DNA from: an uncultured Candidatus Saccharibacteria bacterium
GTDB lineage: Bacteria; Patescibacteriota; Saccharimonadia; Saccharimonadales; JACDBH01
Length of the DNA: 64,000 nucleotides
Reading direction: 5' to 3'
Assembly (NCBI GenBank): GCA_964431415.1
Contig: CAYSJS010000001.1
Span: 1,740-65,739, forward strand
Of this stretch, positions 2,857-18,109 are shown piece after piece. Positions within the stretch are counted from its first letter, which is position 1. Each line of letters begins with the position of its first letter. The notes beneath the pieces were generated by a model that was not told the DNA's origin, ran no database searches, and saw only the letters and a list, made by a program, of their open reading frames with translations. The translations under genes were made by a program, and so were the position numbers.

Positions 2857-3093
2857 ATGGAAGTTCCTCAAAGTGTAATGAGTTTCGTCCAAAGACGGGT
2901 TGAAGCCGCAACGGGTAGACGTGAGATCTACGAAGGTCGCCTGTCTGTTGACCAAATGCATGGCCTTTCAGTGACGCCTGCTCAAGTTTTAATACGTGGC
3001 GCCCTTTGTACTTTGGAGGCTATTGCACAAGGCACAGAAGAATTTCTGACCTCAGATGAAAAGCTCGATGACTTATTTTCACGAAGAAAGTAA
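2857..3093 (+). CDS. Hypothetical 78-aa protein
   Basis: The ORF starts 3 nt after the rpsG stop on the same strand. No family recognised. Confidence 0.45.
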   Translation: MEVPQSVMSFVQRRVEAATGRREIYEGRLSVDQMHGLSVTPAQVLIRGALCTLEAIAQGTEEFLTSDEKLDDLFSRRK

Positions 3094-3134
3094 ACAGTAT
3101 ATGAAAATTATAAAGCCTGTATTGGCTTGAGGAT

Positions 3135-3344
3135 ATGATAATGAGTGAAGGTACGCCACAAAATGGATTTTCGCTTCTTCCTGAACGCTTCGCTCCGGAA
3201 GACCTTTCTGCGATCAGGGAGCTTGCAAGTGAACTCGATAATCCATCGATGGAAATCGTCAGGGCAGCCCTGGGAAGATTTGAGGAGCATATACTCAGAA
3301 GAAGAAATGAAGGTGGAGAAGGTACACCGCCCCCTACTATGTAG
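3135..3344 (+). CDS. Hypothetical 69-aa protein, weakly ribbon-helix-helix-like
   Basis: The segment FSLLPERFAPEDLSAIRELASELDNPSMEIVRAALGRF has a strand-helix-helix pattern (impression only). The start could instead be the ATG at 3141. Confidence 0.4.
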   Translation: MIMSEGTPQNGFSLLPERFAPEDLSAIRELASELDNPSMEIVRAALGRFEEHILRRRNEGGEGTPPPTM

Positions 3345-3367
3345 GTAGCACTACAGAAAGAAAAGCA

Positions 3368-3634
3368 ATGGCAGAAATTGGAGGAAGACTCAAAGACAAT
3401 GCGTTCACTAATGCTGGCTTTGCCGCTCTGGACGACATTGCTGCTGCAGCTCTAAGGAGAGGTCGTCAGGGCCGGGGCTGTGATATTGAACTGCAACTGG
3501 CTTCCACGGGCGATACGTATCCCCTCGACCCGAGCAGGATTTCAGCCATTCAAGACGCGGTTACCTCCACAACTCTGATGCCAGCTGACGCTGTTAGATG
3601 TGTCGCGATGATTGTTCATGGTGTCATAAAATAA
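3368..3634 (+). CDS. Hypothetical 88-aa protein
   Basis: Same-strand ORF. No family recognised. Confidence 0.4.
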   Translation: MAEIGGRLKDNAFTNAGFAALDDIAAAALRRGRQGRGCDIELQLASTGDTYPLDPSRISAIQDAVTSTTLMPADAVRCVAMIVHGVIK

Positions 3635-3716
3635 TAAAACATGCACGAGAATATCAAGAAGCGCTTTGAAGTGTGACGGCCGAGCATTACCTAATAAAAA
3701 AGTCAGGAGAAATACA

Positions 3717-4064
3717 GTGACACAGCAAGAAGCAGAAAATAGCAGAACCTCCCTTGTATTTGGCGTGTCCAGACAATCGGTAGAAGAGCAGTTTTTAAGC
3801 GGACAGGCCGAGAGTCCGTCGGCTATATATTTTGAGTTGTCGCGCCTCTACGTAGCACTTTCAGGATGTGTCGTAGTCGAGACCGACAATACGTTCTTGT
3901 CCGAAAGTGATTTGGCTACGGCCAAACGAGATGCAGAGGCGGCGCTTGCCTATAGTGTGGCGTATCGCAGTTTTTGCAGCGACACATTTCATAACGACAC
4001 CGTTCAACTTCAACTGCTTGCAGGCTATGTCGATAGCCTACTCAAGGCAAAAGACGAAAGCTAA
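3717..4064 (+). CDS. Hypothetical 115-aa acidic protein
   Basis: A GTG at 3717 is preceded by AGGAG (3704-3708). The longer ORF-track start at 3666 (TTG) lacks an RBS. Confidence 0.45.
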   Translation: MTQQEAENSRTSLVFGVSRQSVEEQFLSGQAESPSAIYFELSRLYVALSGCVVVETDNTFLSESDLATAKRDAEAALAYSVAYRSFCSDTFHNDTVQLQLLAGYVDSLLKAKDES

Positions 4065-4274: not shown

Positions 4275-6362
4275 ATGGCAGATAAAAAAACAGCAATGAA
4301 AATGATCCGCAACATGGGTATTATCGCTCATATTGACGCCGGTAAAACGACGACAACCGAAGGTATTTTGTACCGCACTGGCCTAAAGCACAAAATTGGC
4401 GCCGTGCACGAAGGCGAAACTACCACCGACTGGATGGCTCAGGAACGCGAGCGCGGTATTACTATTGTTTCTGCTGCAGTTACCTGTTACTGGAAGGGAC
4501 ACCAGATTAACATTATCGATACGCCGGGTCACATCGACTTTACAGTCGAGGTAGAACGTTCACTCCGCGTACTCGACGGAGCATGTGTTGTCTTTGACGG
4601 TAAAATGGGTGTTGAATCACAATCTGAGACGGTATGGCGCCAGGCTACCAAATACGGCGTGCCACGTATCTGCTTTATTAACAAGATTAACCAAACCGGC
4701 GGCGACTTCTACAAGAGCCTTGAATCTATTCATAACCGCCTCAGCAAGCGCGCATTCCCGGTCCACCTGCCAATTGGCTTTGAGCAGAGCATAAACGGTG
4801 TTGTCGACTTGGTTACAATGAAGGCGTACACCTACAAAGACTTTACCGATCACGAGCTGATCGAAGGCGAAATTCCCGCCGACATGATGGACGAGGTAAA
4901 GCGTTACCGCTCGCTTTTGATTGAAAATGCCGTTGCCGAAGACGAAGCAATGCTTGAAAAGTACTTCGAAGTGGGTGAAGAAGGTTTGAGCGAAGAAGAC
5001 ATCAAGCAGGCGATTCGTTCTGCGGTACTTTCTGGCAACTTCTTTGCAGTTACGGGCGGTGATGGTCGCGGAGTAATTGTAGAAAAACTTCTCGACATGT
5101 TTATGGACTACCTCCCAAGCCCGCTTGACCGCGGCAGCACATGGGGCACGCATCCAAAAACCGGTGACGAAATTGAGCGCCAGCCTGCTGAGGATCAGCC
5201 AATGGCCGGTCTTGCATTTAAGATCACAACCGACCCGTTTGTGGGTAAGCTTGCATATTTCCGTGTGTATTCTGGCAAGATTACGGCCGGGTCATATGTA
5301 CTCAACAGCTCAACAGGCGAAAAAGAGCGTATTGGACGCATTGTTCGTATGCAAGCAGACAAGCGCGAAGATGTGGCAGAAGTGTCTGCCGGTGACATCG
5401 CCGCAATCGTTGGCTTAAAAGGGACGACGACTGGCCACACATTGTGCGACCCAAATAATCCTATCGTACTTGAGAGCATTACCTTCCCAGAGCCTCCGGT
5501 TTCTATCGCTATCGAACCAAAGACAAAATCTGACCAAGAAAAAATGTCGATCGCTATGCAGCGCTTGGCTGAAGAAGATCCAACCTTCCGTATTAAAGTT
5601 GATGACGAAACCGGCCAGACGATCATCAGCGGCATGGGTGAGCTGCACCTAGAAATTATTGTTGACCGTATGAAGCGCGAATTTGACGTTGAAGCAAACA
5701 TTGGCGCACCGCAGGTTGCGTACCGCGAAACGATCCGTAAAGCCGATGTTGAAGCGCAAGGTAAGTTTATTCGTCAGTCTGGTGGACGCGGTCAGTACGG
5801 TGACGCATGGATCCGTATTTCGCCAAATGAGCAGGGTAAGGGCTTTGAATTTATTAACTCGATCAAGGGTGGTGTAATCCCTGGCGAGTACATTAAGCCT
5901 GTTGAAGCCGGTATTGTTGAAGCGATGACGACCGGTACGGTTGCTGGCTATCCGGTAGTAGATGTAATTGTTGAACTGTACGATGGTAGTTACCACGAAG
6001 TTGACTCCAACGAAATGGCCTTTAAGATTGCAGGGTCAATGGCCTTCCAGGAAGCAATGAAGAAAGCTAACCCGGTTTTGCTTGAGCCAATCATGAAAGT
6101 TGTTGTAATTACACCAGAAGAGTTCATGGGTGACGTAATCGGTGACTTAAACAGCAAGCGCGCTCGAATCGAGTCTATGGAAGATCTTCAAGCTGGAATC
6201 AAAGAGATAACCGCCTTTGTACCGCTTGGTGAAATGTTTGGCTACACGACTACGCTTAGAAGCTCTACAAAGGGCCGCGCAAGTTCAAGCATGGAGCTTG
6301 ACCACTACGCCGACGTGCCGAACCATGTTGCAGAGGCAATCGCCAGCAAACGCGCAAAATAA
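4275..6362 (+). CDS. fusA: Elongation factor G
   Basis: AHIDAGKTTTTE, DTPGHIDFT and NKINQ GTPase motifs. 695 aa, with full-length EF-G-like sequence. Confidence 0.97.
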   Translation: MADKKTAMKMIRNMGIIAHIDAGKTTTTEGILYRTGLKHKIGAVHEGETTTDWMAQERERGITIVSAAVTCYWKGHQINIIDTPGHIDFTVEVERSLRVLDGACVVFDGKMGVESQSETVWRQATKYGVPRICFINKINQTGGDFYKSLESIHNRLSKRAFPVHLPIGFEQSINGVVDLVTMKAYTYKDFTDHELIEGEIPADMMDEVKRYRSLLIENAVAEDEAMLEKYFEVGEEGLSEEDIKQAIRSAVLSGNFFAVTGGDGRGVIVEKLLDMFMDYLPSPLDRGSTWGTHPKTGDEIERQPAEDQPMAGLAFKITTDPFVGKLAYFRVYSGKITAGSYVLNSSTGEKERIGRIVRMQADKREDVAEVSAGDIAAIVGLKGTTTGHTLCDPNNPIVLESITFPEPPVSIAIEPKTKSDQEKMSIAMQRLAEEDPTFRIKVDDETGQTIISGMGELHLEIIVDRMKREFDVEANIGAPQVAYRETIRKADVEAQGKFIRQSGGRGQYGDAWIRISPNEQGKGFEFINSIKGGVIPGEYIKPVEAGIVEAMTTGTVAGYPVVDVIVELYDGSYHEVDSNEMAFKIAGSMAFQEAMKKANPVLLEPIMKVVVITPEEFMGDVIGDLNSKRARIESMEDLQAGIKEITAFVPLGEMFGYTTTLRSSTKGRASSSMELDHYADVPNHVAEAIASKRAK

Positions 6363-6363
6363 G

Positions 6364-6391
6364 TTGCATAATTCTTGATTGGTAGTATAGT
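6364..6391 (+). promoter_or_regulatory. Candidate promoter (TTGCAT-N16-TATAGT) placed 11 nt before the ATG at 6403
   Basis: Hexamers read from the sequence. The spacing implies a very short or absent 5' UTR. Confidence 0.3.
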
Positions 6392-6402
6392 TTCTTTCTA
6401 AA

Positions 6403-6999
6403 ATGGCAGAACGTGAAATTGTACGTCTACCGGATGAAATAGAAAATCGCGCACTCACGATCTTGTGCGAAGGCGTGTCGAGCATTCAGGTGTCAATGTC
6501 AAGGCGGAGCATTGCAGAAGTATTTGCGAGTCCTGATTACGACGTAATGGTCGACGGAATTAAAAAGCTAGAGGAGCTTTACAGCATACTCGATCCGCCG
6601 GCTATTGTACTAAGACCGTCTCAAGCTGAAGGTGTGGATATAGATAATCTTCCTTCTCACGACCTAGTCGCCAATGTCGCGAGCGCTATAGCTCTATCAC
6701 AGACCGCGACCTATGATCAAAGAATGGAACTACTAGAAACTTGGGCGGGTATATCGTCAGACGGTCCTTATAGGACTATGCCCTCGCCAGAAGCGGCTTG
6801 GGTTGTTGCACAGGAACAACTTATTGACCAACGGGAATGGGCGACGCTCTCCAGGAATGAGGGCAGGATATTCGAAACAACTGCAATGCTTGAAGAGATC
6901 TACGCGGCCGGTCATCGCCCGAATATAGTAAAACACCTTGGCATACTTGCGAGCGGTGTAATCGGTACACTTGCTCGCGCCGTTTGGTATAGACGTTAA
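6403..6999 (+). CDS. Hypothetical 198-aa protein
   Basis: ORF directly after fusA. No family recognised. Confidence 0.5.
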   Translation: MAEREIVRLPDEIENRALTILCEGVSSIQVSMSRRSIAEVFASPDYDVMVDGIKKLEELYSILDPPAIVLRPSQAEGVDIDNLPSHDLVANVASAIALSQTATYDQRMELLETWAGISSDGPYRTMPSPEAAWVVAQEQLIDQREWATLSRNEGRIFETTAMLEEIYAAGHRPNIVKHLGILASGVIGTLARAVWYRR

Positions 7000-7008
7000 T
7001 TTTTGTTC

Positions 7009-7037
7009 TTTACGGACAGTACAATAAAGCTTATACT
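7009..7037 (+). promoter_or_regulatory. Candidate promoter (TTTACG-N17-TATACT) ending 8 nt before the ATG at 7046
   Basis: Hexamers at 7009-7014 and 7032-7037. The geometry suggests a leaderless transcript. Confidence 0.3.
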
Positions 7038-7045
7038 TACTCGTA

Positions 7046-8278
7046 ATGAAGGGTAAAAGGGTAAAGTTTAACTGGCGCATGATAGCTTTGGCAGCAGCGC
7101 TGAGTTTGTCGGCGTTTATTAGACTGCCGGCAGCTGACGCAGCATGTCCTAACAATGCAGGCACGTATGGTTCTGTAAGCGGAAGCTTTACAATTCCAGC
7201 CGCTGGCACATATAAAGTGTGGAGCCGAATAATGCCCGATGCGTCATCGACTACAAACGATTCTTACACCTTAGAAATAGACGGCACCACCTGTGGGGTG
7301 ACGGTAGGTGATGCCGGTACTCTGCCCGCCAATACATGGACATGGGTTGATTACCAAAACGGCAACACTGCCAGCAAGGTTACGGTAACGCTCTCCGCCG
7401 GTACCCATACATACACGATGTTTGGACGAGAAAGCAATGTCATGGTTGATCGGGTTATCTTTGCTTCTAATGCAGCATGTGTAATTAGCGGTCTTGGCGA
7501 TAACTGCATACCTTCTGCTGGCGATACTACGTATCCTACGGTTTCTCTCACTGCGCCTACCAACGGAAGCACGGTGAGCAACACCGTTACCGTGACGGCG
7601 AACGCAGCTGACAACGTAGGAGTTGCCGCGGTTTCGTTTTACTTAGATGGCTCTGCGACGCCTTTTGCTACAGATTCAACCAGCCCATACAGCGTATCGT
7701 GGGTTACGTCTGGCGTGAGCAACGGCAGCCATACACTTACTGCCAAGGCAGCCGATACTTCCGGACTTGTAACTACTTCTTCCGGAGTGGCAGTTACTGT
7801 CGCAAACACGGTGCCTGACACCACCTCGCCTACCGTATCGTTCACTGCTCCTTCTGTGGGAGCAACCCTAAGCGGTACGACAACGGTTACTATGAACGCG
7901 AGTGACAATGTGGGTGTAACCAGAGTTGAACTCTATGCAGATGGCACGCTTATAGGCACAGATACACAGAGTCCGTATAACTTCAGCGTAAACACTACCA
8001 GCTATACAAATGGCAGCCATACATTTATGGCAAGAGCATATGATACTGCAAATAATACGCCGGGCCAGGCTTCGGTTACGGTAACAGTTAACAATGTTAT
8101 TGCAACGCCGAAGGCAGGTGATGTGAACGGTGACAACAAGATTGATGTGTTTGATGCCTCGATTTTGCTCTCGAACTGGGGCAAATCCGGGATGAGCAAG
8201 GCTCAAGGTGACCTGAATGCCGATGGAACCGTGAATGTGTTTGACGCTTCGATATTATTAGCAAACTGGGGGAAATAA
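7046..8278 (+). CDS. Secreted protein: signal peptide, CBM-like beta-sandwich, two Ig-like domains, C-terminal dockerin
   Basis: The N-terminal hydrophobic signal ends in AADA. Two tandem repeats of about 95 aa are present (PTVSLTAPTNGSTVSNTVTVTANAADNVGV... / PTVSFTAPSVGATLSGTTTVTMNASDNVGV...). The C-terminus has duplicated Ca-binding dockerin segments (GDVNGDNKIDVFDASILLSNWGK / GDLNADGTVNVFDASILLANWGK). Confidence 0.75.
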   Translation: MKGKRVKFNWRMIALAAALSLSAFIRLPAADAACPNNAGTYGSVSGSFTIPAAGTYKVWSRIMPDASSTTNDSYTLEIDGTTCGVTVGDAGTLPANTWTWVDYQNGNTASKVTVTLSAGTHTYTMFGRESNVMVDRVIFASNAACVISGLGDNCIPSAGDTTYPTVSLTAPTNGSTVSNTVTVTANAADNVGVAAVSFYLDGSATPFATDSTSPYSVSWVTSGVSNGSHTLTAKAADTSGLVTTSSGVAVTVANTVPDTTSPTVSFTAPSVGATLSGTTTVTMNASDNVGVTRVELYADGTLIGTDTQSPYNFSVNTTSYTNGSHTFMARAYDTANNTPGQASVTVTVNNVIATPKAGDVNGDNKIDVFDASILLSNWGKSGMSKAQGDLNADGTVNVFDASILLANWGK

Positions 8279-8281
8279 GGT

Positions 8282-9502
8282 ATGGGTGTGGTAAAACGAA
8301 CTAAAGCACTACTGCTTGCAGCGATTATGGTAGTCGTGCCGCTGTTCGCTTCTGGTCACGCAGCCGCTGCAGGCTCGGCAAGCTTTAGTTTGAGTCCAAC
8401 CGGCGGAAGCTTTGTGAAGGGCAGCACGCTTACTGTTACGGTTAATGTATCCAGTTCAGACCAGATCAATACCGTTCAAGCCGACATAACATATGACGCA
8501 GCAAAGCTGCAGTATGCTTCGATTGACGGCTCAGGCAGCGCGTTTGACTTCCCACTGGCTGCATCTGGCGGTGGCGGTTCGGTGCAAATCGCACGTGGAG
8601 TTTCTGGTGGCGCAACAGTAAGCGGAACCAAGAAACTTGCTTCAGTTAACTTCACTGTTTTGGTGTCCGGTACTACTGCAACACTGAGTTTTGCTTCCAG
8701 CTCGGCAATCTTGTCTCCTGGCGGCAGCGGTACGACAAACGTATGGAACGGTAATACTACGGGAGGTTCATATACTTTGACAGCTCCTGTTGAAAGTACG
8801 CCTCCACCAGCTAGCGGTTCATCCGGATCTTCGGGTTCTGGTTCAAGCGGTGGAAACAAGAATAATACGCCAGCCCAGCCCTCTAAGCCGGCACAGCCTG
8901 CCGCCCCCGCACAACCTGCTTCTCCCGAGCAGCCTGTTGTAACCAGCGCCCCAGCTGCGAATACCAAGCATCTTGTGGCAATCAAAGTCGTGGACAAAAA
9001 TGACAAAACCAAAAAATCGCTGGATGTGCGCTTGAACGGGGTGACTGTTAAGACTGATGACAAAGGTATTGCTAGCTTTTCTGATGTGCCAACCGGAACC
9101 CACACGGTGACGGTATTTACCTCAAAGGATGTTTCGACGGATATGACCATAGAGGTAAAAGACGGCGACACTACTGCGGTTCAAAGCTATACATTCAAAC
9201 TACCTCAGTCATCGAGCAAAAAATGGATGTATCTAATACTTATCATCCCTGCAGCAATCCTTATTGTTGGGTTGATTCTGGTGGTACGGAGTAAACTCAA
9301 AAATAAGTTAAAAAATGTATATCAAGGAACGGCTCCGGCTGCGTCGGCAATAACCGGTGATTTTGATGCACGTGCAGCCGGTGTACATAAATCATTAGCT
9401 GAAGAGGGTCAACCAGTGGCCCCGCCTGCAACCGTAATCCGTCCAACTGTAACCAACGAGACAGCCAACGAAACCGAGCACGAAAAAGAAAACGGAGAAT
9501 AA
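8282..9502 (+). CDS. Membrane-anchored cohesin-domain protein
   Basis: Domain order: signal peptide, cohesin-like module, linker, beta-sandwich segment, one TM helix. The cohesin-like module reads SASFSLSPTGGSFVKGSTLTVTVNV...VQADITYDAAKLQY...GTKKLASVNFTV. The linker is rich in Pro, Ala and Ser (PAQPSKPAQPAAPAQPASPEQP). The TM helix is WMYLILIIPAAILIVGLILVV. Confidence 0.7.
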   Translation: MGVVKRTKALLLAAIMVVVPLFASGHAAAAGSASFSLSPTGGSFVKGSTLTVTVNVSSSDQINTVQADITYDAAKLQYASIDGSGSAFDFPLAASGGGGSVQIARGVSGGATVSGTKKLASVNFTVLVSGTTATLSFASSSAILSPGGSGTTNVWNGNTTGGSYTLTAPVESTPPPASGSSGSSGSGSSGGNKNNTPAQPSKPAQPAAPAQPASPEQPVVTSAPAANTKHLVAIKVVDKNDKTKKSLDVRLNGVTVKTDDKGIASFSDVPTGTHTVTVFTSKDVSTDMTIEVKDGDTTAVQSYTFKLPQSSSKKWMYLILIIPAAILIVGLILVVRSKLKNKLKNVYQGTAPAASAITGDFDARAAGVHKSLAEEGQPVAPPATVIRPTVTNETANETEHEKENGE

Positions 9503-9504
9503 GA

Positions 9505-11892
9505 GTGCCGGTTCGGCAAATACAGCAGTCTCATCTTGCTGTTCGTAGAGTCATGACACGTTTTAACATATTCTATACAAGGAATAAGAGGTTTGTCGCG
9601 CCAGCTTTGTTTAGCATTGCCTTTGGTCTGCTTGGTCTTATTACGATTTTACTAACACAAGCGGCATCTACGGATTATTTGATAGAGCCGGAAACAGGGA
9701 CTCTCAGCGGAAATGCTGTATCGGTTAATGACGCCGGAGCATCAAATGGCTCCGCGGTTAAGTTTGCTGCAGCCAACGGCGGTAGCTGGAAGACACTAAA
9801 AATTGGCGCGGGTGGTTTTTTGACAGGGATAGATATGTCCAAAGACGGTACGACCCGTGTGGTCCGCACTGATACATACGGAGCATACATATGGCAAACA
9901 AACGAATGGAAGCAGCTGGTGACCAAATCCAGTATGCCGGCTGATGATATTTTGCCATTCACGGGCGGCGGGGTATTTGAAATCGCGGTCGCTCCATCTA
10001 ACGGTAATAGAATATATATGGCTTGGCACGGCACGGTATATATAAGCGAGAACAAAGGCTCTACCTGGTCTAAAACAACGCTAACCGGTAAGGTTTTTGA
10101 TGGCAATGACGGGTACAGAGTTAACGGCAGGAAGATGGTGGTCGATCCGATTAATCCGGACGTAGTCTACTTTGGAATCCCAAACGATGGCGTTTACGTA
10201 ACCACCAACAAAGGCTCTAGCTGGGCTAAGGTAAGTGCCATACCGGTTGCAAATGATGCAGGATACAGTGGCATGGCTTATTACGAAAACGGTGGCCAGA
10301 CTGCCGGAAAAACAAAGACCCTTATTATTCCGGTCTCTGGCGGTAGTGTATACCGTACTGCCGATGCGGGATCTACCTGGAGTAGCATAGGCGGAATCTC
10401 TGACATACAAACCGCTGCAATGTCTACCAATGGCACGTACTATGCTACGAGCTACCCGAACATTTACCGGTACAAGAATGGCGCTTGGTCTGTGATCCTT
10501 GCAAACACAAATGGAAATATGCATTCCGTAGCCGTGGATCCAAATGATCCAACTCATATTGTCTTAGGCCGTGAAAGCGGTGAGATCATCCAAAGCTATA
10601 ACGAGGGAGCTAGTTGGACGAACATCGCCTGGGACCTTAAACAGCGGGTTGCGACAGACATACCCTGGCTCGCCTGGACGGATGAAAATTACATGTCCAA
10701 TGGATTCATGATGTTTGACACGGCAGTACCAGACAAGCTTTGGTTTGCTCAAGGAATTGGCGTATGGCATCTTAAGCCATCGCAAAACGTAAACTCCTAC
10801 ACGTGGAACTCACAAAGCGCCGGAATTGAACAGTTAGTTATAAACGACATAATAAGTCCGCCTGGCGGTAAGCCGATTATTGCAGTATGGGACCGTGGAC
10901 ATTTTAGGATCAACGACCCCGACCAATACCCTGCGACCCACGGACCTACCAACGCTTTTGACAGCACCTGGGACTTGGATTATTCGGGGGGCACGCCTTC
11001 TTTCTTGGTTGCTAACTCCAGTAATTTTGTGCACAAAACAATCAATGCGGGTTATTCTAGCGATGGCGGTGTGACGTGGCAAAAGTTTGCATCAATGCCA
11101 GCCAATGCCGGAAATAACCCAGATATATATGGATATGGCGGCATTGCAGTTGGCGACACTAACCATATGGTATGGATGGGCGGATCAAGTAAGTGGCCTT
11201 ACTATACTGCCAACAGAGGAGCCTCATGGCAGCCCATATCTATGGCTGGTCTAAACCAAGCGACGGCCGATTTAAGCGGTTTTCAGTGGGGTATGTATTT
11301 GCATCGCCATACGGTCGCCTCCGACAAAGTTACTATGAATACTTTTTATCTGCTCTATCTTGCAGGCAACGACAATCAAATGGGTTTTTACCGTTCTACC
11401 GATGGAGGTGCCAACTGGTCCATTGTGGGCAGCATAGCAAATAACAGCGCAGTGTCTAATGATATACGATGGGCAAGCTATAATGCCGAACTTCAAGCCG
11501 TGCCAGGCAAAGCCGGCCACTTATTCTTTACGCCAGGACATTCCGGCACTAGTCCCGATTCGCTAACTCCTTCTGATCAAAAGTTCATACGCTCTACGGA
11601 TGGCGGAGCCACCTGGACGGCAGTCGGCAACGGCAGCGTAAAAGAAGTATATAAGTTTGGATATGGCAAAGCGAAGGACGCTGGCGGCTATCCTTCGATT
11701 TATATTATTGGATGGGTAAGCAACCAGTACGGCATATGGCGGTCAGATGATGAAGGAGTAACGTGGGCAAAGATTGGTGATTACCCAAACGACAGCCTTG
11801 ACTCCGTTGCGGCTATAAGTGGTGATATGAACACATATGGAACCGTCTACATCGGTCTGGGTGGCTCGGGTGCAGTGTATTACAAACTGTAA
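9505..11892 (+). CDS. BNR/Asp-box repeat beta-propeller protein (GH74/sortilin-like) with an N-terminal membrane anchor
   Basis: About nine Asp-box-like motifs are present (SENKGSTW, TTNKGSSW, TADAGSTW, SSDGGVTW, STDGGANW, STDGGATW, SDDEGVTW and others). GTG start with a GGAGA RBS. An ATG at 9553 is an alternative start. Confidence 0.7.
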   Translation: MPVRQIQQSHLAVRRVMTRFNIFYTRNKRFVAPALFSIAFGLLGLITILLTQAASTDYLIEPETGTLSGNAVSVNDAGASNGSAVKFAAANGGSWKTLKIGAGGFLTGIDMSKDGTTRVVRTDTYGAYIWQTNEWKQLVTKSSMPADDILPFTGGGVFEIAVAPSNGNRIYMAWHGTVYISENKGSTWSKTTLTGKVFDGNDGYRVNGRKMVVDPINPDVVYFGIPNDGVYVTTNKGSSWAKVSAIPVANDAGYSGMAYYENGGQTAGKTKTLIIPVSGGSVYRTADAGSTWSSIGGISDIQTAAMSTNGTYYATSYPNIYRYKNGAWSVILANTNGNMHSVAVDPNDPTHIVLGRESGEIIQSYNEGASWTNIAWDLKQRVATDIPWLAWTDENYMSNGFMMFDTAVPDKLWFAQGIGVWHLKPSQNVNSYTWNSQSAGIEQLVINDIISPPGGKPIIAVWDRGHFRINDPDQYPATHGPTNAFDSTWDLDYSGGTPSFLVANSSNFVHKTINAGYSSDGGVTWQKFASMPANAGNNPDIYGYGGIAVGDTNHMVWMGGSSKWPYYTANRGASWQPISMAGLNQATADLSGFQWGMYLHRHTVASDKVTMNTFYLLYLAGNDNQMGFYRSTDGGANWSIVGSIANNSAVSNDIRWASYNAELQAVPGKAGHLFFTPGHSGTSPDSLTPSDQKFIRSTDGGATWTAVGNGSVKEVYKFGYGKAKDAGGYPSIYIIGWVSNQYGIWRSDDEGVTWAKIGDYPNDSLDSVAAISGDMNTYGTVYIGLGGSGAVYYKL

Positions 11893-11960
11893 TTTGTCTG
11901 ATGCATATACACCTGTTCGCTTTATATCGTATGCATAAGATGCTACGCTAAAAACTGGTT

Positions 11961-12557
11961 ATGGCTAAAAATTTCTTAATGCCAACAAAATATGAAGCGG
12001 CAAGCATGTCGGCTTTTGCGGTGTTTGTTTTATTTGCCTTATCGGCTCCACCAATTATTAAACAATCAAATATAGATGTATATTTATTCTTAAGCGACCG
12101 TTTTAGCGGTTGGATTCACCTGCGCTTAGAAGGTCTCGATACGCCTCTTATTACTTCCGTTGTTACTTTCTTGCTTTGGTCGGTAGTGGGTGCACTCGTA
12201 TATATTCTTTTATGGGCAGGCGTAACGGTCGTGAAAGATCTCGATTCCCATATTTCGCCATTTAGACGACTCATGATCCCGAGAGATATAAAAGTCAAAA
12301 AAAGTATTGGGCTTGCACTTGCGCGTATAGGCGTTAGGTTGACGGCTTGCATTGCGCTTATTGCGTGGATTATCTATAGTTTTGAGGCTATTCTGCCGTA
12401 TGCCGTCTTGCTGTTTGGGAATGCATTTGTACGGATTGACCGCTACAGTCCTGTGCAGTTTATTATTGCGTTCTTGCTTACTATGGCGGTTTTTTATGTA
12501 TCCACTGTATTGGCGCGCTTGATTGCTCTTAGAAGCCGCGTGTTAAAAAGCAGTTAG
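11961..12557 (+). CDS. Hypothetical integral membrane protein (198 aa)
   Basis: Several hydrophobic segments in the translation. No family recognised. Confidence 0.5.
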   Translation: MAKNFLMPTKYEAASMSAFAVFVLFALSAPPIIKQSNIDVYLFLSDRFSGWIHLRLEGLDTPLITSVVTFLLWSVVGALVYILLWAGVTVVKDLDSHISPFRRLMIPRDIKVKKSIGLALARIGVRLTACIALIAWIIYSFEAILPYAVLLFGNAFVRIDRYSPVQFIIAFLLTMAVFYVSTVLARLIALRSRVLKSS

Positions 12558-12600
12558 GTGCGTTTCCAAAAGAAAAGCCTTAAAAGTTATTTGCTAACAC

Positions 12601-12629
12601 TTTACAAACCCTTTACGCTGCGGTATATT
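12601..12629 (+). promoter_or_regulatory. Candidate promoter upstream of tuf (TTTACA-N17-TATATT, preceded by AACAC)
   Basis: Hexamers at 12601-12606 and 12624-12629 with an exact 17-nt spacer. Confidence 0.5.
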
Positions 12630-12856
12630 TAATACATCTCGCGAGAGGGCATTGTTCGATTTGCTAACAAGTAGATCACAATATGGACCGCGAAAAGAAA
12701 ATTACAATATCAACTATCTAAACGATCTTTAATACATCGACACTAGAGACTGTTTTAAGGCCAAGAACTTGAAGGCATTTGCCAGTAAAGTCGCAGCTTT
12801 TGATACACTAGAGTGGGTGATGTAGTAGAATCGTTGAAGATAATAAAGGAGACAAA

Positions 12857-14041
12857 ATGGCAGATAGTTTTGATCGAACAAAGCCACACGTAAACGTCGG
12901 TACTATGGGTCACGTTGACCACGGTAAAACCACGCTTACGGCTGCAATTACAACCGTACTTGCAAAAAGAATGCCAACCGCTGTTAACAAGCCGGTTGCA
13001 TATGACCAAATTGACAATGCACCTGAAGAAAAAGCACGCGGTATAACCATCGCTACTTCTCACCAGGAATATGAGTCTGAAAAGCGCCACTACGCGCACG
13101 TCGACATGCCAGGTCACGCCGACTACGTTAAGAACATGATCACCGGTGCCGCTCAGATCGATGGCGCCATCTTGGTGGTTGCCGCAAACGACGGTCCGCT
13201 GCCACAAACCCGCGAACACGTTCTGCTTGCAAAGCAAGTGGGCGTACCATACATCTTGGTATTCATGAACAAGATGGACCTTGCAGATCCAGAGCTCATC
13301 GAGCTTGTAGAAATGGACATTCGCGAACTGCTTGCAAAGAACGGCTATGACGAAAACGCTCCAATCATCAAAGGTTCAGCAACCAAGGCTATGGCCGGTG
13401 ATGCTGAAGCTGAAGATGCAATCATGGAACTCGTTAAGGCTATGGATGACAACATTCCAGAACCAAAGCGCGAGCTCGACAAGCCATTTTTGATGAGTAT
13501 TGAAGACGTCTTTTCGATCAAGGGACGTGGAACAGTTGCTACCGGTCGTATTGACCAGGGTATCGTTAAGGTTAACGACGAAGTAGAAATCGTTGGTCTC
13601 CGCGACACCAAGAAGTCAGTTGTTACCGGTGTAGAAATGTTCAAAAAGAACCTCGACCAAGGTCAGGCCGGCGACAACGTTGGTATCTTGCTCCGCGGTA
13701 TCGAGCGTGAAGACATTGAGCGCGGTCAAGTTTTGGCAAAGCCAGGCTCGATCACTCCTCACACCGAATTCGAATCTGAAGTATATATCCTTACCAAAGA
13801 AGAAGGCGGTCGTCACACCCCATTCTTCAAGGGATACAAGCCTCAGTTCTACTTCCGTACAACGGATGTAACCGGCGAAGTTGAACTTCCTGCCGACAAA
13901 GAAATGGTTATGCCTGGTGATACTGTCACCTTTAAGGTAAAACTACTTGCTCCGATTGCTATGGAACAGGGTCTTAACTTTGCTATCCGCGAAGGTGGAC
14001 GTACTGTTGGTGCTGGTGTCGTAACTAAGATTACAAAATAG
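12857..14041 (+). CDS. tuf: Elongation factor Tu
   Basis: [21 protein letters not shown] and NKMD motifs. 394 aa. AAAGGAG RBS. Confidence 0.98.
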
Positions 14042-17203: not shown

Positions 17204-18109
17204 ATGAATCATTTTGGCGCAAGCTTTTCGTTAATATATGCAAGGGAGATGCGGGTAGAACCAAAGGCCTGTCTTGAGGCGGCATTGGAAGACTTAGGAG
17301 TACGTAGGCTCAGATTAATGAGTTACTGGGACGTGCACGAAAAAACTCGCGGCAGCTATGACTTTACCGAATTAGACTGGCAAATTGACATGGCAGAACA
17401 GCATGGGGCAGAAGTATCGCTTTGTTTGGGCCTGCGTCAGCCGCGCTGGCCCGAAAGTCACTGGCCGGAGTGGGCGCTGCAGCTTCCAGATACAGAATGG
17501 CAAGCGGCTCTCTATAGCTTTATAGAAATAGTAGTAAAGAGATATAAAGACAGAAAGTGCATCATTAGCTATCAGCTTGAAAATGAGGCACTCCTAAAGT
17601 CATTTGGACTGCGGAGTAACTTCGACAGAAAAAGACTGGTACGAGAATTTAAACTCGTAAAGCAACTTGACCCATCTCGCCCGGTAATAATGACGACGTC
17701 CGATGCCTGGGGCATCCCGTGGCGCAGACCTTTGCCCGATATTGTCGGCTTTTCAATCTATCGCTACTTATTTGACGCAAAAAAGAACCGGTACGTAAAA
17801 AGCACAAGACGTGCAAGGTTTTATAGGTTCCGCGCTGTACTTATACGTATACTTCGTTTCAGAAAAACATATATCCATGAGCTGCAAGCCGAACCTTGGG
17901 GACCAAAAGCAACCATCGAATTGCCTGTAGATGAGCAGGCAAAAAGCATGAACCTTGCACATGTTCAGGAGGCCGTCCAGTACGCCCAAGATACAACCTT
18001 GCTTCCGGCAGATCTCTGGGGACTGGAATGGTGGTTCTGGCTGAAAACAAAACACGGCCAAACCGAAATATGGAATTACTTGAAACAAGTTTATAAAAGT
18101 ACACACTAA
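17204..18109 (+). CDS. Putative clan GH-A (TIM-barrel) glycoside hydrolase-like protein
   Basis: W..HE...G.YDF..LD.. opening and YQLENEA (a candidate acid/base NE motif) resemble GH5/GH42-type barrels. Assignment by motif only. Confidence 0.45.
   Translation: MNHFGASFSLIYAREMRVEPKACLEAALEDLGVRRLRLMSYWDVHEKTRGSYDFTELDWQIDMAEQHGAEVSLCLGLRQPRWPESHWPEWALQLPDTEWQAALYSFIEIVVKRYKDRKCIISYQLENEALLKSFGLRSNFDRKRLVREFKLVKQLDPSRPVIMTTSDAWGIPWRRPLPDIVGFSIYRYLFDAKKNRYVKSTRRARFYRFRAVLIRILRFRKTYIHELQAEPWGPKATIELPVDEQAKSMNLAHVQEAVQYAQDTTLLPADLWGLEWWFWLKTKHGQTEIWNYLKQVYKSTH

Follow-up and report, generated by a model that had tools for sequence, protein, structure and literature searches.

The docking of dockerins onto cohesins is the assembly principle of cellulosomes. 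Cohesin and dockerin modules that belong to no cellulosome are also known, from all three domains of life (Peer et al. 2009, as cited in later literature). Proteins annotated as dockerin-like or 'cellulosome anchoring' were noted in genomes of SR1 and OD1 (Kantor et al. 2013, PMC3812714), and in Southlakia epibionticum the dockerin-domain envelope protein SEML1_0315 is essential in co-culture with the host (Wang et al. 2023, PMC10633639). These reports stay at the level of annotation and name no cohesin partner for Saccharibacteria; in the supplements of Wang et al. 2023, no cohesin, PF00963, PF00404 or scaffoldin entries were found. How Saccharibacteria and other candidate phyla build their surface is poorly understood, yet it is the surface that decides their epibiotic life. 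Here we describe two adjacent genes, one for a dockerin-bearing and one for a cohesin-bearing protein, in a 64,000-nucleotide stretch of contig CAYSJS010000001.1 from an uncultured Candidatus Saccharibacteria bacterium (the window, to which all coordinates given without a locus name refer). We put at about 0.7 the probability that these two translationally coupled genes form a non-cellulosomal cohesin–dockerin pair displaying a protein on the Saccharimonadales cell surface.

A six-frame motif scan and custom hidden Markov models (HMMs) found a single dockerin and a single cohesin in the whole 64 kb, encoded by adjacent genes. The adjacency had already been pointed out in a preliminary description of this DNA, and the two genes are indeed the sole such pair in the window. 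They open a trio of tightly packed genes (7046–8278, 8282–9502 and 9505–11892). The cohesin gene starts 3 nucleotides past the stop codon of the dockerin gene, and ahead of this start a purine-rich, Shine–Dalgarno-like stretch, GGGGGAAATAAGG, lies inside the end of the dockerin gene. The third gene begins with a GTG at 9505, 2 nucleotides past the cohesin stop, and is preceded at a distance of 8 nucleotides by GGAG, again inside the end of the upstream gene. A scan of positions 6000–13000 for consensus promoters and terminators found such sites to be no commoner than in shuffled sequence, and it does not inform on the limits of the operon.

The first gene encodes the dockerin-bearing protein, hereafter the cargo. 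Its layout, a signal peptide followed by a module resembling carbohydrate-binding modules (CBMs) of families 6 and 35, two Big_7 immunoglobulin (Ig) modules and a C-terminal dockerin, is as follows.

7046–8278, plus strand: gene of the secreted dockerin-bearing cargo, 410 residues (open reading frame (ORF) including the stop codon; Pfam; AlphaFold2 (AF2))
7046–7141, plus strand: Sec-type signal peptide, residues 1–32, ending in A-D-A (read from the sequence)
7142–7525, plus strand: N-terminal β-sandwich module, CBM6/CBM35/GH115_C-like below threshold (profile searches, AF2)
7526–8116, plus strand: two Big_7 Ig-like spacer modules (Pfam Big_7, PDB sequence matches, Foldseek)
8117–8275, plus strand: dockerin, two 23-residue repeats of calcium loop and helix joined by SGMSKAQ (Pfam, PDB, AF2)

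Pfam Dockerin_1 (PF00404) matches residues 357–404 with 33.8 bits against a cut-off of 22.9. The two dockerin repeats, residues 358–380 (nucleotides 8117–8185) and 388–410 (nucleotides 8207–8275), agree with each other at 16 of 23 positions, and both fit the calcium-loop pattern D-x-N-x-D-x-x-x-[DN]-x-x-D. At loop positions 1, 3, 5, 9 and 12 they read D-N-D-D-D in GDVNGDNKIDVFD... and D-N-D-N-D in GDLNADGTVNVFD..., so that the duplicated calcium-binding dockerin claimed for the end of this product stands with both of its loops intact. In the AF2 model (mean pLDDT, the predicted local distance difference test score, of 83 for the whole protein), helices 368–376 and 398–406 fall within the repeats with pLDDT values of 85–95. 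Weak sequence matches to dockerins in PDB include 2y3n_B (E 3e-4), 1daq and 2mte. The repeats are near-identical at the positions that we take to contact cohesins in known complexes, and a dual binding mode is therefore possible.

The remaining modules of the cargo are less evenly supported. Its signal peptide was recognized by eye from a basic n-region (KGKRVK), a hydrophobic core and an AxA site; AF2 places a low-confidence helix at 11–24. The two Big_7 copies reach 140.2 bits, above the curated cut-off, and match 9x9r, 3pdd and 9kvu by sequence and 3pdd, 9kvu and 3pe9 by Foldseek, with pLDDT above 90. The N-terminal module (residues 33–160; pLDDT about 80–85) has four invariant cysteines, C34, C83, C145 and C154. 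Within its family, GH115_C matches all nine members (9/9; best E 6e-5) and CBM_6 matches 4/9 (best E 2.8e-4), all of them below threshold (for GH115_C, 21.3 bits against a cut-off of 24.1), while the family profile picks out CBM35 2wz8 (E 0.0018), CBM35 2vzp and CBM6 1uxz in PDB. From these matches it is reasonable to regard the module as a putative carbohydrate-binding module. A Foldseek search with the full-length cargo model is dominated by Ig/FN3 hits, from which the N-terminal module is not identifiable. The cargo had been described as CBM-like and Ig-like: the Ig-like part holds, in two copies, whereas the CBM-like part finds only sub-threshold matches. A Pfam scan of the cargo found no catalytic domain.

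The second gene encodes the cohesin-bearing protein, hereafter the anchor.

8282–9502, plus strand: gene of the membrane-anchored cohesin protein, 406 residues (ORF including the stop codon; Pfam Cohesin)
8282–8371, plus strand: signal peptide, residues 1–30 (read from the sequence; AF2)
8372–8800, plus strand: cohesin module, residues 31–173 (Pfam, AF2, Foldseek)
8801–8965, plus strand: Pro/Ser/Gly/Ala-rich linker, residues 174–228 (AF2 disorder)
8966–9223, plus strand: Ig-like stalk domain, CarboxypepD_reg-like, below threshold here (Pfam, AF2)
9224–9286, plus strand: transmembrane helix WMYLILIIPAAILIVGLILVV, residues 315–335 (hydrophobic segment inside AF2 helix 313–343)
9287–9499, plus strand: predicted cytoplasmic tail, residues 336–406, with the motif TVIRP at nucleotides 9431–9445 (AF2, disordered)

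Pfam Cohesin (PF00963) matches residues 46–148 with 34.1 bits against a cut-off of 24.1. The cohesin and Dockerin_1 profiles had both been set beforehand as refuting tests, and both score above their curated thresholds. In an AF2 model built on 13 homologues, residues 30–170 form a confident all-β sandwich (pLDDT 80–93). When this model was compared with PDB using Foldseek, nearly all of the top 50 hits were cohesins, with E-values down to 1e-8 and template modeling (TM) scores of 0.70–0.78. Structural matches include 6kgf_C (TM-score 0.78), 5nrm_A, 4uyp, 2xdh and 1ohz_A; among the hits are type I cohesins of Clostridium acetobutylicum, Acetivibrio and C. thermocellum as well as non-cellulosomal ones from Archaeoglobus and C. 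perfringens. The predicted structure thus confirms that the module has a cohesin fold, by definition a flattened jelly-roll sandwich of nine β-strands, and superposes on solved cohesins.

The rest of the anchor is as expected from the preliminary description, which had read a Pro-rich linker and a membrane anchor behind the cohesin-like module. A signal peptide is apparent by eye (KRTK, a hydrophobic core and AAAA-G) and corresponds to AF2 helix 3–22; an N-terminal hydrophobic segment is present in most members of the anchor family. The linker has pLDDT below 50 at residues 178–227, and comparable low-complexity linkers occur in all homologues. The stalk domain, modeled as β-strands within 230–306 (pLDDT 74–81), scores 18.8 bits with Pfam CarboxypepD_reg, below the cut-off, and the same profile reaches 52.7 bits in locus L027 and 36.4 bits in locus L034 at the same position of the respective anchors. 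Directly after WMYLILIIPAAILIVGLILVV comes RSKLKNKLKN, and by the positive-inside rule the tail of the anchor is therefore predicted to be cytoplasmic. We also observed that a motif of the form [IV][IVL]xP occurs in 67 of 110 tails of transmembrane-anchored cohesin proteins, compared to 17.8 ± 3.5 in residue shuffles. It takes the form TVIRP in the window and VITPQNK, VIHP or VIQP elsewhere (tails including P0002 and P0265–P0408).

How typical is the adjacency of the two genes? At all eight loci reached through protein homologues (8/8), the cohesin-anchor gene adjoins at least one dockerin gene in unrelated genomic surroundings. The homologous cohesin proteins share one architecture: a signal peptide, a cohesin, a low-complexity linker, at least one Ig-like domain, a transmembrane helix and a tail. 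The loci differ in what is docked and in how many modules are involved.

L007: 681-residue cargo (N-terminal region without a Pfam match, two Big_7 modules, dockerin) ending 2 nucleotides before the anchor
L010: 1,522-residue β-helix/Ig/dockerin protein with a 4-nucleotide overlap with the anchor
L011: 511-residue protein with the N-terminal module of the window cargo and a dockerin, 4-nucleotide overlap with the anchor
L012, 1915–6600: two-cohesin anchor beside an adaptor with cohesin and dockerin, plus a CBM60–cohesin protein
L008, 1749–12858: two cohesin genes and six dockerin genes, five of them with an N-terminal dockerin
L013 and L014: cargo orthologues, followed by anchors consisting of signal peptide, cohesin and transmembrane helix

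The same picture is obtained from the dockerin side, where the full-length cargo orthologues P0100 and P0091 each lie directly 5′ of a 327- or 337-residue anchor. A metagenome scan added 19 further loci; it used cohesin peptide patterns taken from an 8-sequence alignment, the 13-sequence alignment A1 being too divergent. Cohesin and dockerin are in neighboring genes in 12/19 of these and in a single protein of roughly 340–500 residues in 4/19, the remaining 3/19 being cut by a contig end. In several metagenome loci (L022, L024–L028), adaptors of about 340 residues, made of cohesin, Big_7 and dockerin, adjoin transmembrane-anchored cohesins. The cargo differs from cassette to cassette, from a CE4 deacetylase with CBM_4_9 to a GDSL esterase, a β-helix protein and the CBM-like module of the window. 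The constant elements are the dockerin and the anchor encoded downstream, as would be expected if the former were a docking tag and the latter its socket. With all other neighbors differing, and with one dockerin among about 60 genes of the window, the repeated adjacency is far beyond chance. A dockerin gene that lies beside, or is translationally coupled to, a homologous anchor gene at many unrelated loci therefore provides independent support for the proposed pairing; the window pair represents the simplest arrangement within a large family, to which adaptors and anchors with several cohesins also belong.

The size of this family was estimated by running phmmer with the cohesin module on 1.84 billion representative proteins: 1,639 clusters reach E ≤ 1e-3, and 538 of them E ≤ 1e-10. 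Among the best 150 of the 1,639 clusters, 109 have a single cohesin, followed on its C-terminal side by a hydrophobic segment or helix in 101 of the 109; the other 41 contain between two and four, with a dockerin in addition in 12 of the 41. Pfam Cohesin scores of the subfamily range from 24 to 34 bits against the cut-off of 24.1, with homologous anchors at 24.0–27.9. Pfam Cohesin fails to detect three anchors, those of L008, L010 and L012, which the family HMM finds at E 1e-45 or better. Lying at the Pfam detection limit, the anchor subfamily is probably missed or under-annotated in routine annotation, and this marginal detection is probably the reason why it is rarely annotated.

Such modest HMM scores, together with several homologous anchors below the Pfam cohesin threshold, could also mean that the modules are relics that have diverged and lost their ability to interact, with the cohesin serving as an Ig-like stalk element and the dockerin as a calcium-stabilized C-terminal cap. 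Non-cellulosomal modules of undefined function are indeed common in the literature cited here. We nevertheless consider this reading highly improbable. Both calcium-loop patterns are intact and duplicated, and the cohesin model superposes on solved cohesins at the TM-scores given above. Moreover, the dockerin is kept on very different cargo, including at N-termini, as expected of a portable docking tag, and the gene linkage is strictly conserved.

For the two proteins as a pair, we propose the following arrangement. The first product, exported by Sec, would present a glycan-binding module of CBM6/35-like type, a pair of Ig spacers and a C-terminal type-I-like dockerin. The second would be a type I membrane protein, with its N-terminal cohesin held off the membrane by the disordered linker of about 55 residues and the Ig-like domain, and with the single transmembrane helix and the basic cytoplasmic tail fixing it in the membrane. 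The dockerin would bind the cohesin in a calcium-dependent manner, as in cellulosomes, and the lectin-like cargo would thereby sit at the tip of a membrane-rooted stalk.

What such a stalk might capture is suggested by the third gene of the trio.

9505–11892, plus strand: glycoside hydrolase of family GH74 with an N-terminal membrane anchor, residues 30–54 (phmmer against PDB)

In phmmer searches against PDB, its product matches 6p2m_A with E 1.3e-56 over residues 87–792, which covers both of the tandem seven-bladed propeller domains that characterize GH74; about 15 further GH74 chains are matched, with GH74 xyloglucanases at 1e-34 to 1e-24. The segment VRTDTYGAY, containing the first Asp, aligns with the catalytic-Asp motif RTD of 6mgj (RTA in the mutant 6mgl), and WD in AVWDRGHF aligns with the second conserved motif, GD, of 6mgj and 6p2m, whose Asp is a putative second catalytic residue. 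Neither Pfam nor the custom HMMs detected a dockerin or cohesin in this protein. The earlier reading of it as an Asp-box propeller lacking a dockerin can thus be refined: judged by its sequence, it is a membrane-anchored GH74-type glycoside hydrolase. Such a neighbor suggests β-glucan or xyloglucan-type substrates and, since the enzyme has a membrane anchor of its own, the three packed genes look like a glycan-targeting surface unit. Cargo and anchor, together with this separately anchored β-glucanase/xyloglucanase, would then capture and cleave a β-glucan-type polysaccharide at the cell surface. As a separate observation, a 33-residue segment of the enzyme just past its membrane anchor, STDYLIEPETGTLSGNAVSVNDAGASNGSAVKF (9667–9765), shares 39% identity with the corresponding stretch of an unrelated protein (DUF1996) encoded between fusA and tuf in a related genome (L016, 6436–7686), and it may be a shared juxtamembrane element.

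The same tethering could serve a different role, namely attachment of an epibiont to glycans of its host cell, with the CBM-like module as the adhesin tip. Cultivated Saccharibacteria are epibionts, the window cargo is devoid of a catalytic domain, and the authors who found a dockerin-domain surface protein to be essential in S. epibionticum co-culture suggest that it targets host glycans (PMC10633639). Against this stand the adjacent GH74-type enzyme, whose family is known for xyloglucan and β-1,4-glucan, and the cargo of related cassettes, which consists mostly of carbohydrate-active enzymes. In addition, the sequenced relatives come from environmental metagenomes of unspecified hosts. We take host attachment to be a possible but unlikely role for the tethered cargo.

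Several observations weigh against the proposal that the window pair displays a glycan-binding protein. The CBM assignment of the cargo rests on sub-threshold matches. The cohesin HMM score of the anchor exceeds its threshold by only about 10 bits, and a phmmer search of the whole anchor against PDB retrieved no cohesin, only a low-complexity match on the Pro-rich linker. At the other loci examined, no GH74 gene lies beside the cohesin–dockerin pair, and its functional link to the pair is therefore weak; the GH74 gene is a neighbor and not a core part of the conserved pair. Finally, SEML1_0315 of S. epibionticum, the single dockerin protein of Saccharibacteria with a reported phenotype, is not encoded beside a cohesin gene, and cohesins or dockerins elsewhere in the genome, beyond the 64 kb, could alter the pairing.

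These last two points bear on another explanation, in which the dockerin does not bind the neighboring cohesin at all. Both would then have their partners elsewhere or on another cell, and the adjacency would reflect co-regulation of surface proteins. The pairing is, after all, judged from a 64 kb window of the genome, SEML1_0315 has no cohesin gene beside it, and related loci with several dockerins per cohesin and with dual-module adaptors indicate that the relation is not always one-to-one. Set against this, the window holds one module of each kind, and in many unrelated contexts that share no other neighbor the two genes again directly adjoin or overlap. Translational coupling is, moreover, typical of stoichiometric partners. 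Partners other than the neighboring cohesin therefore seem to us quite improbable for the window dockerin, and we retain the pairing of the two adjacent products as the preferred interpretation.

The pair lies within the str region of ribosomal-protein and elongation-factor genes. On the 5′ side of the trio, the order is the end of rpoC, rpsL, rpsG, four small ORFs, fusA (4275–6362) and a 198-residue ORF; on the 3′ side, a 198-residue membrane ORF is followed by tuf (12857–14041). The EF-Tu encoded here is 90–94% identical to proteins named Candidatus Saccharibacteria or Saccharimonadales, which assigns the window to a Saccharibacterium. A scan of GTDB representatives found only one related locus, in a Saccharimonadales metagenome-assembled genome. 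In two related Saccharimonadales genomes (L015 and L016), the fusA–tuf interval is occupied by other genes, and cohesin, dockerin and GH74 are absent from it. The trio therefore represents lineage-specific accessory content of a variable slot in an otherwise conserved operon. The contents of this slot are dockerin, cohesin and GH74 genes in the window (6363–12856), ORFs of 59 and 199 residues in L015 (8052–9000), and, in L016 (6320–9000), a DUF1996 protein together with a homologue of the window membrane ORF at 11961–12557.

We considered whether the ORFs flanking the trio, 6403–6999 and 11961–12557, are parts of the system and rejected both: they have no Pfam domains, and neither accompanies the pair at other loci. 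The second is, in addition, conserved beside tuf in L016, a locus lacking both cohesin and dockerin. Two further features of the region were noted. Between rpsG and fusA (2857–4064) lie the four small ORFs, of 78, 69, 88 and 132 residues; the gene calls of the identical contigs L001, L003 and L005 include them, with no Pfam hit recorded. L015 likewise has four small ORFs between rpsG and fusA, but without similarity to those of the window, and L016 has none. Between rpsJ and rplC, a 301-residue protein (17204–18109) gives weak matches to the TIM-barrel glycosidase families GH42 and GH10 and is 65% identical to its counterpart at the same place in L015 (13648–14541).

Taken as a whole, the cassette provides a testable hypothesis, in which a membrane-rooted cohesin is the socket for exchangeable dockerin-tagged cargo. 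The anchor family also becomes a candidate partner family for the dockerin proteins flagged as important in a cultivated Saccharibacterium. A broader and more doubtful extension is that Saccharibacteria and related bacteria with small genomes generally use transmembrane-anchored single-cohesin proteins as their socket for surface display. Secreted enzymes, lectins, giant Ig-repeat proteins and adaptors would then all be plugged onto the cell by means of a dockerin tag, the dockerin proteins known to be essential to epibiotic life would rely on an anchor of this type, and through the tail motif [IV][IVL]xP the socket would connect with a partner inside the cell, serving positioning or signaling. 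The significance of the cassette would be greater if the anchor were such a general socket for epibiotic dockerin proteins, or if the tail motif were functional.

How does the window pair relate to the systems already described? Cellulosomal type I pairs, such as OlpA/OlpC of C. thermocellum (3ul4, 4dh2) and CipA–Cel48S (1ohz), have the same module families and predicted folds, and these structures are among the Foldseek hits of the window anchor. Cellulosomal type I dockerins likewise have two duplicated calcium-binding repeats. The likeness to OlpA/OlpC lies in a cell-bound protein whose sole cohesin can keep one dockerin-bearing partner on the surface. In contrast to OlpA/OlpC, the window anchor has a C-terminal transmembrane helix and a 71-residue cytoplasmic tail; Pfam detects no SLH domain in it, no sortase signal was noticed by eye, and its C-terminus is not of the kind with LPXTG and a short tail. 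Unlike the cellulosomal pairs, moreover, the window pair comes without a multi-cohesin scaffoldin, its cargo is a non-catalytic CBM-like protein, and its host is a small-genome Saccharibacterium, not a cellulolytic Firmicute. The locus does not qualify as a cellulosome, since it lacks a multi-cohesin scaffoldin, an SLH domain recognized by Pfam and a set of dockerin-bearing enzymes. Some related loci, unlike the window, do have two-cohesin anchors and adaptors.

The third gene compares in a similar manner with characterized GH74 enzymes (6p2m from Caldicellulosiruptor lactoaceticus, 6mgj from Paenibacillus odorifer and Xgh74A, 2cn2, from C. thermocellum). It shares both propeller domains and the RTD motif with them, but is anchored by an N-terminal helix and has no CBM or dockerin. 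Xgh74A of C. thermocellum is a dockerin-bearing cellulosomal enzyme.

Closer to the window pair are the non-cellulosomal modules, among which the cohesins of Archaeoglobus fulgidus (2xdh) and of Clostridium perfringens glycosidases (2jh2/2vo8) all match the window anchor structurally. As in these and in ANME archaea (PMC9012536), one or a few cohesins and dockerins occur without a cellulosome and with varied cargo. What distinguishes the present case is a fixed two-gene cassette, cargo with dockerin followed by cohesin with a transmembrane anchor, which recurs across many loci; a literature search of incomplete coverage found no description of such a cassette. The principle of cohesin–dockerin docking, including its non-cellulosomal use, is already known and well established. 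The window pair is a new example of it, and the gain is one of scope rather than of concept.

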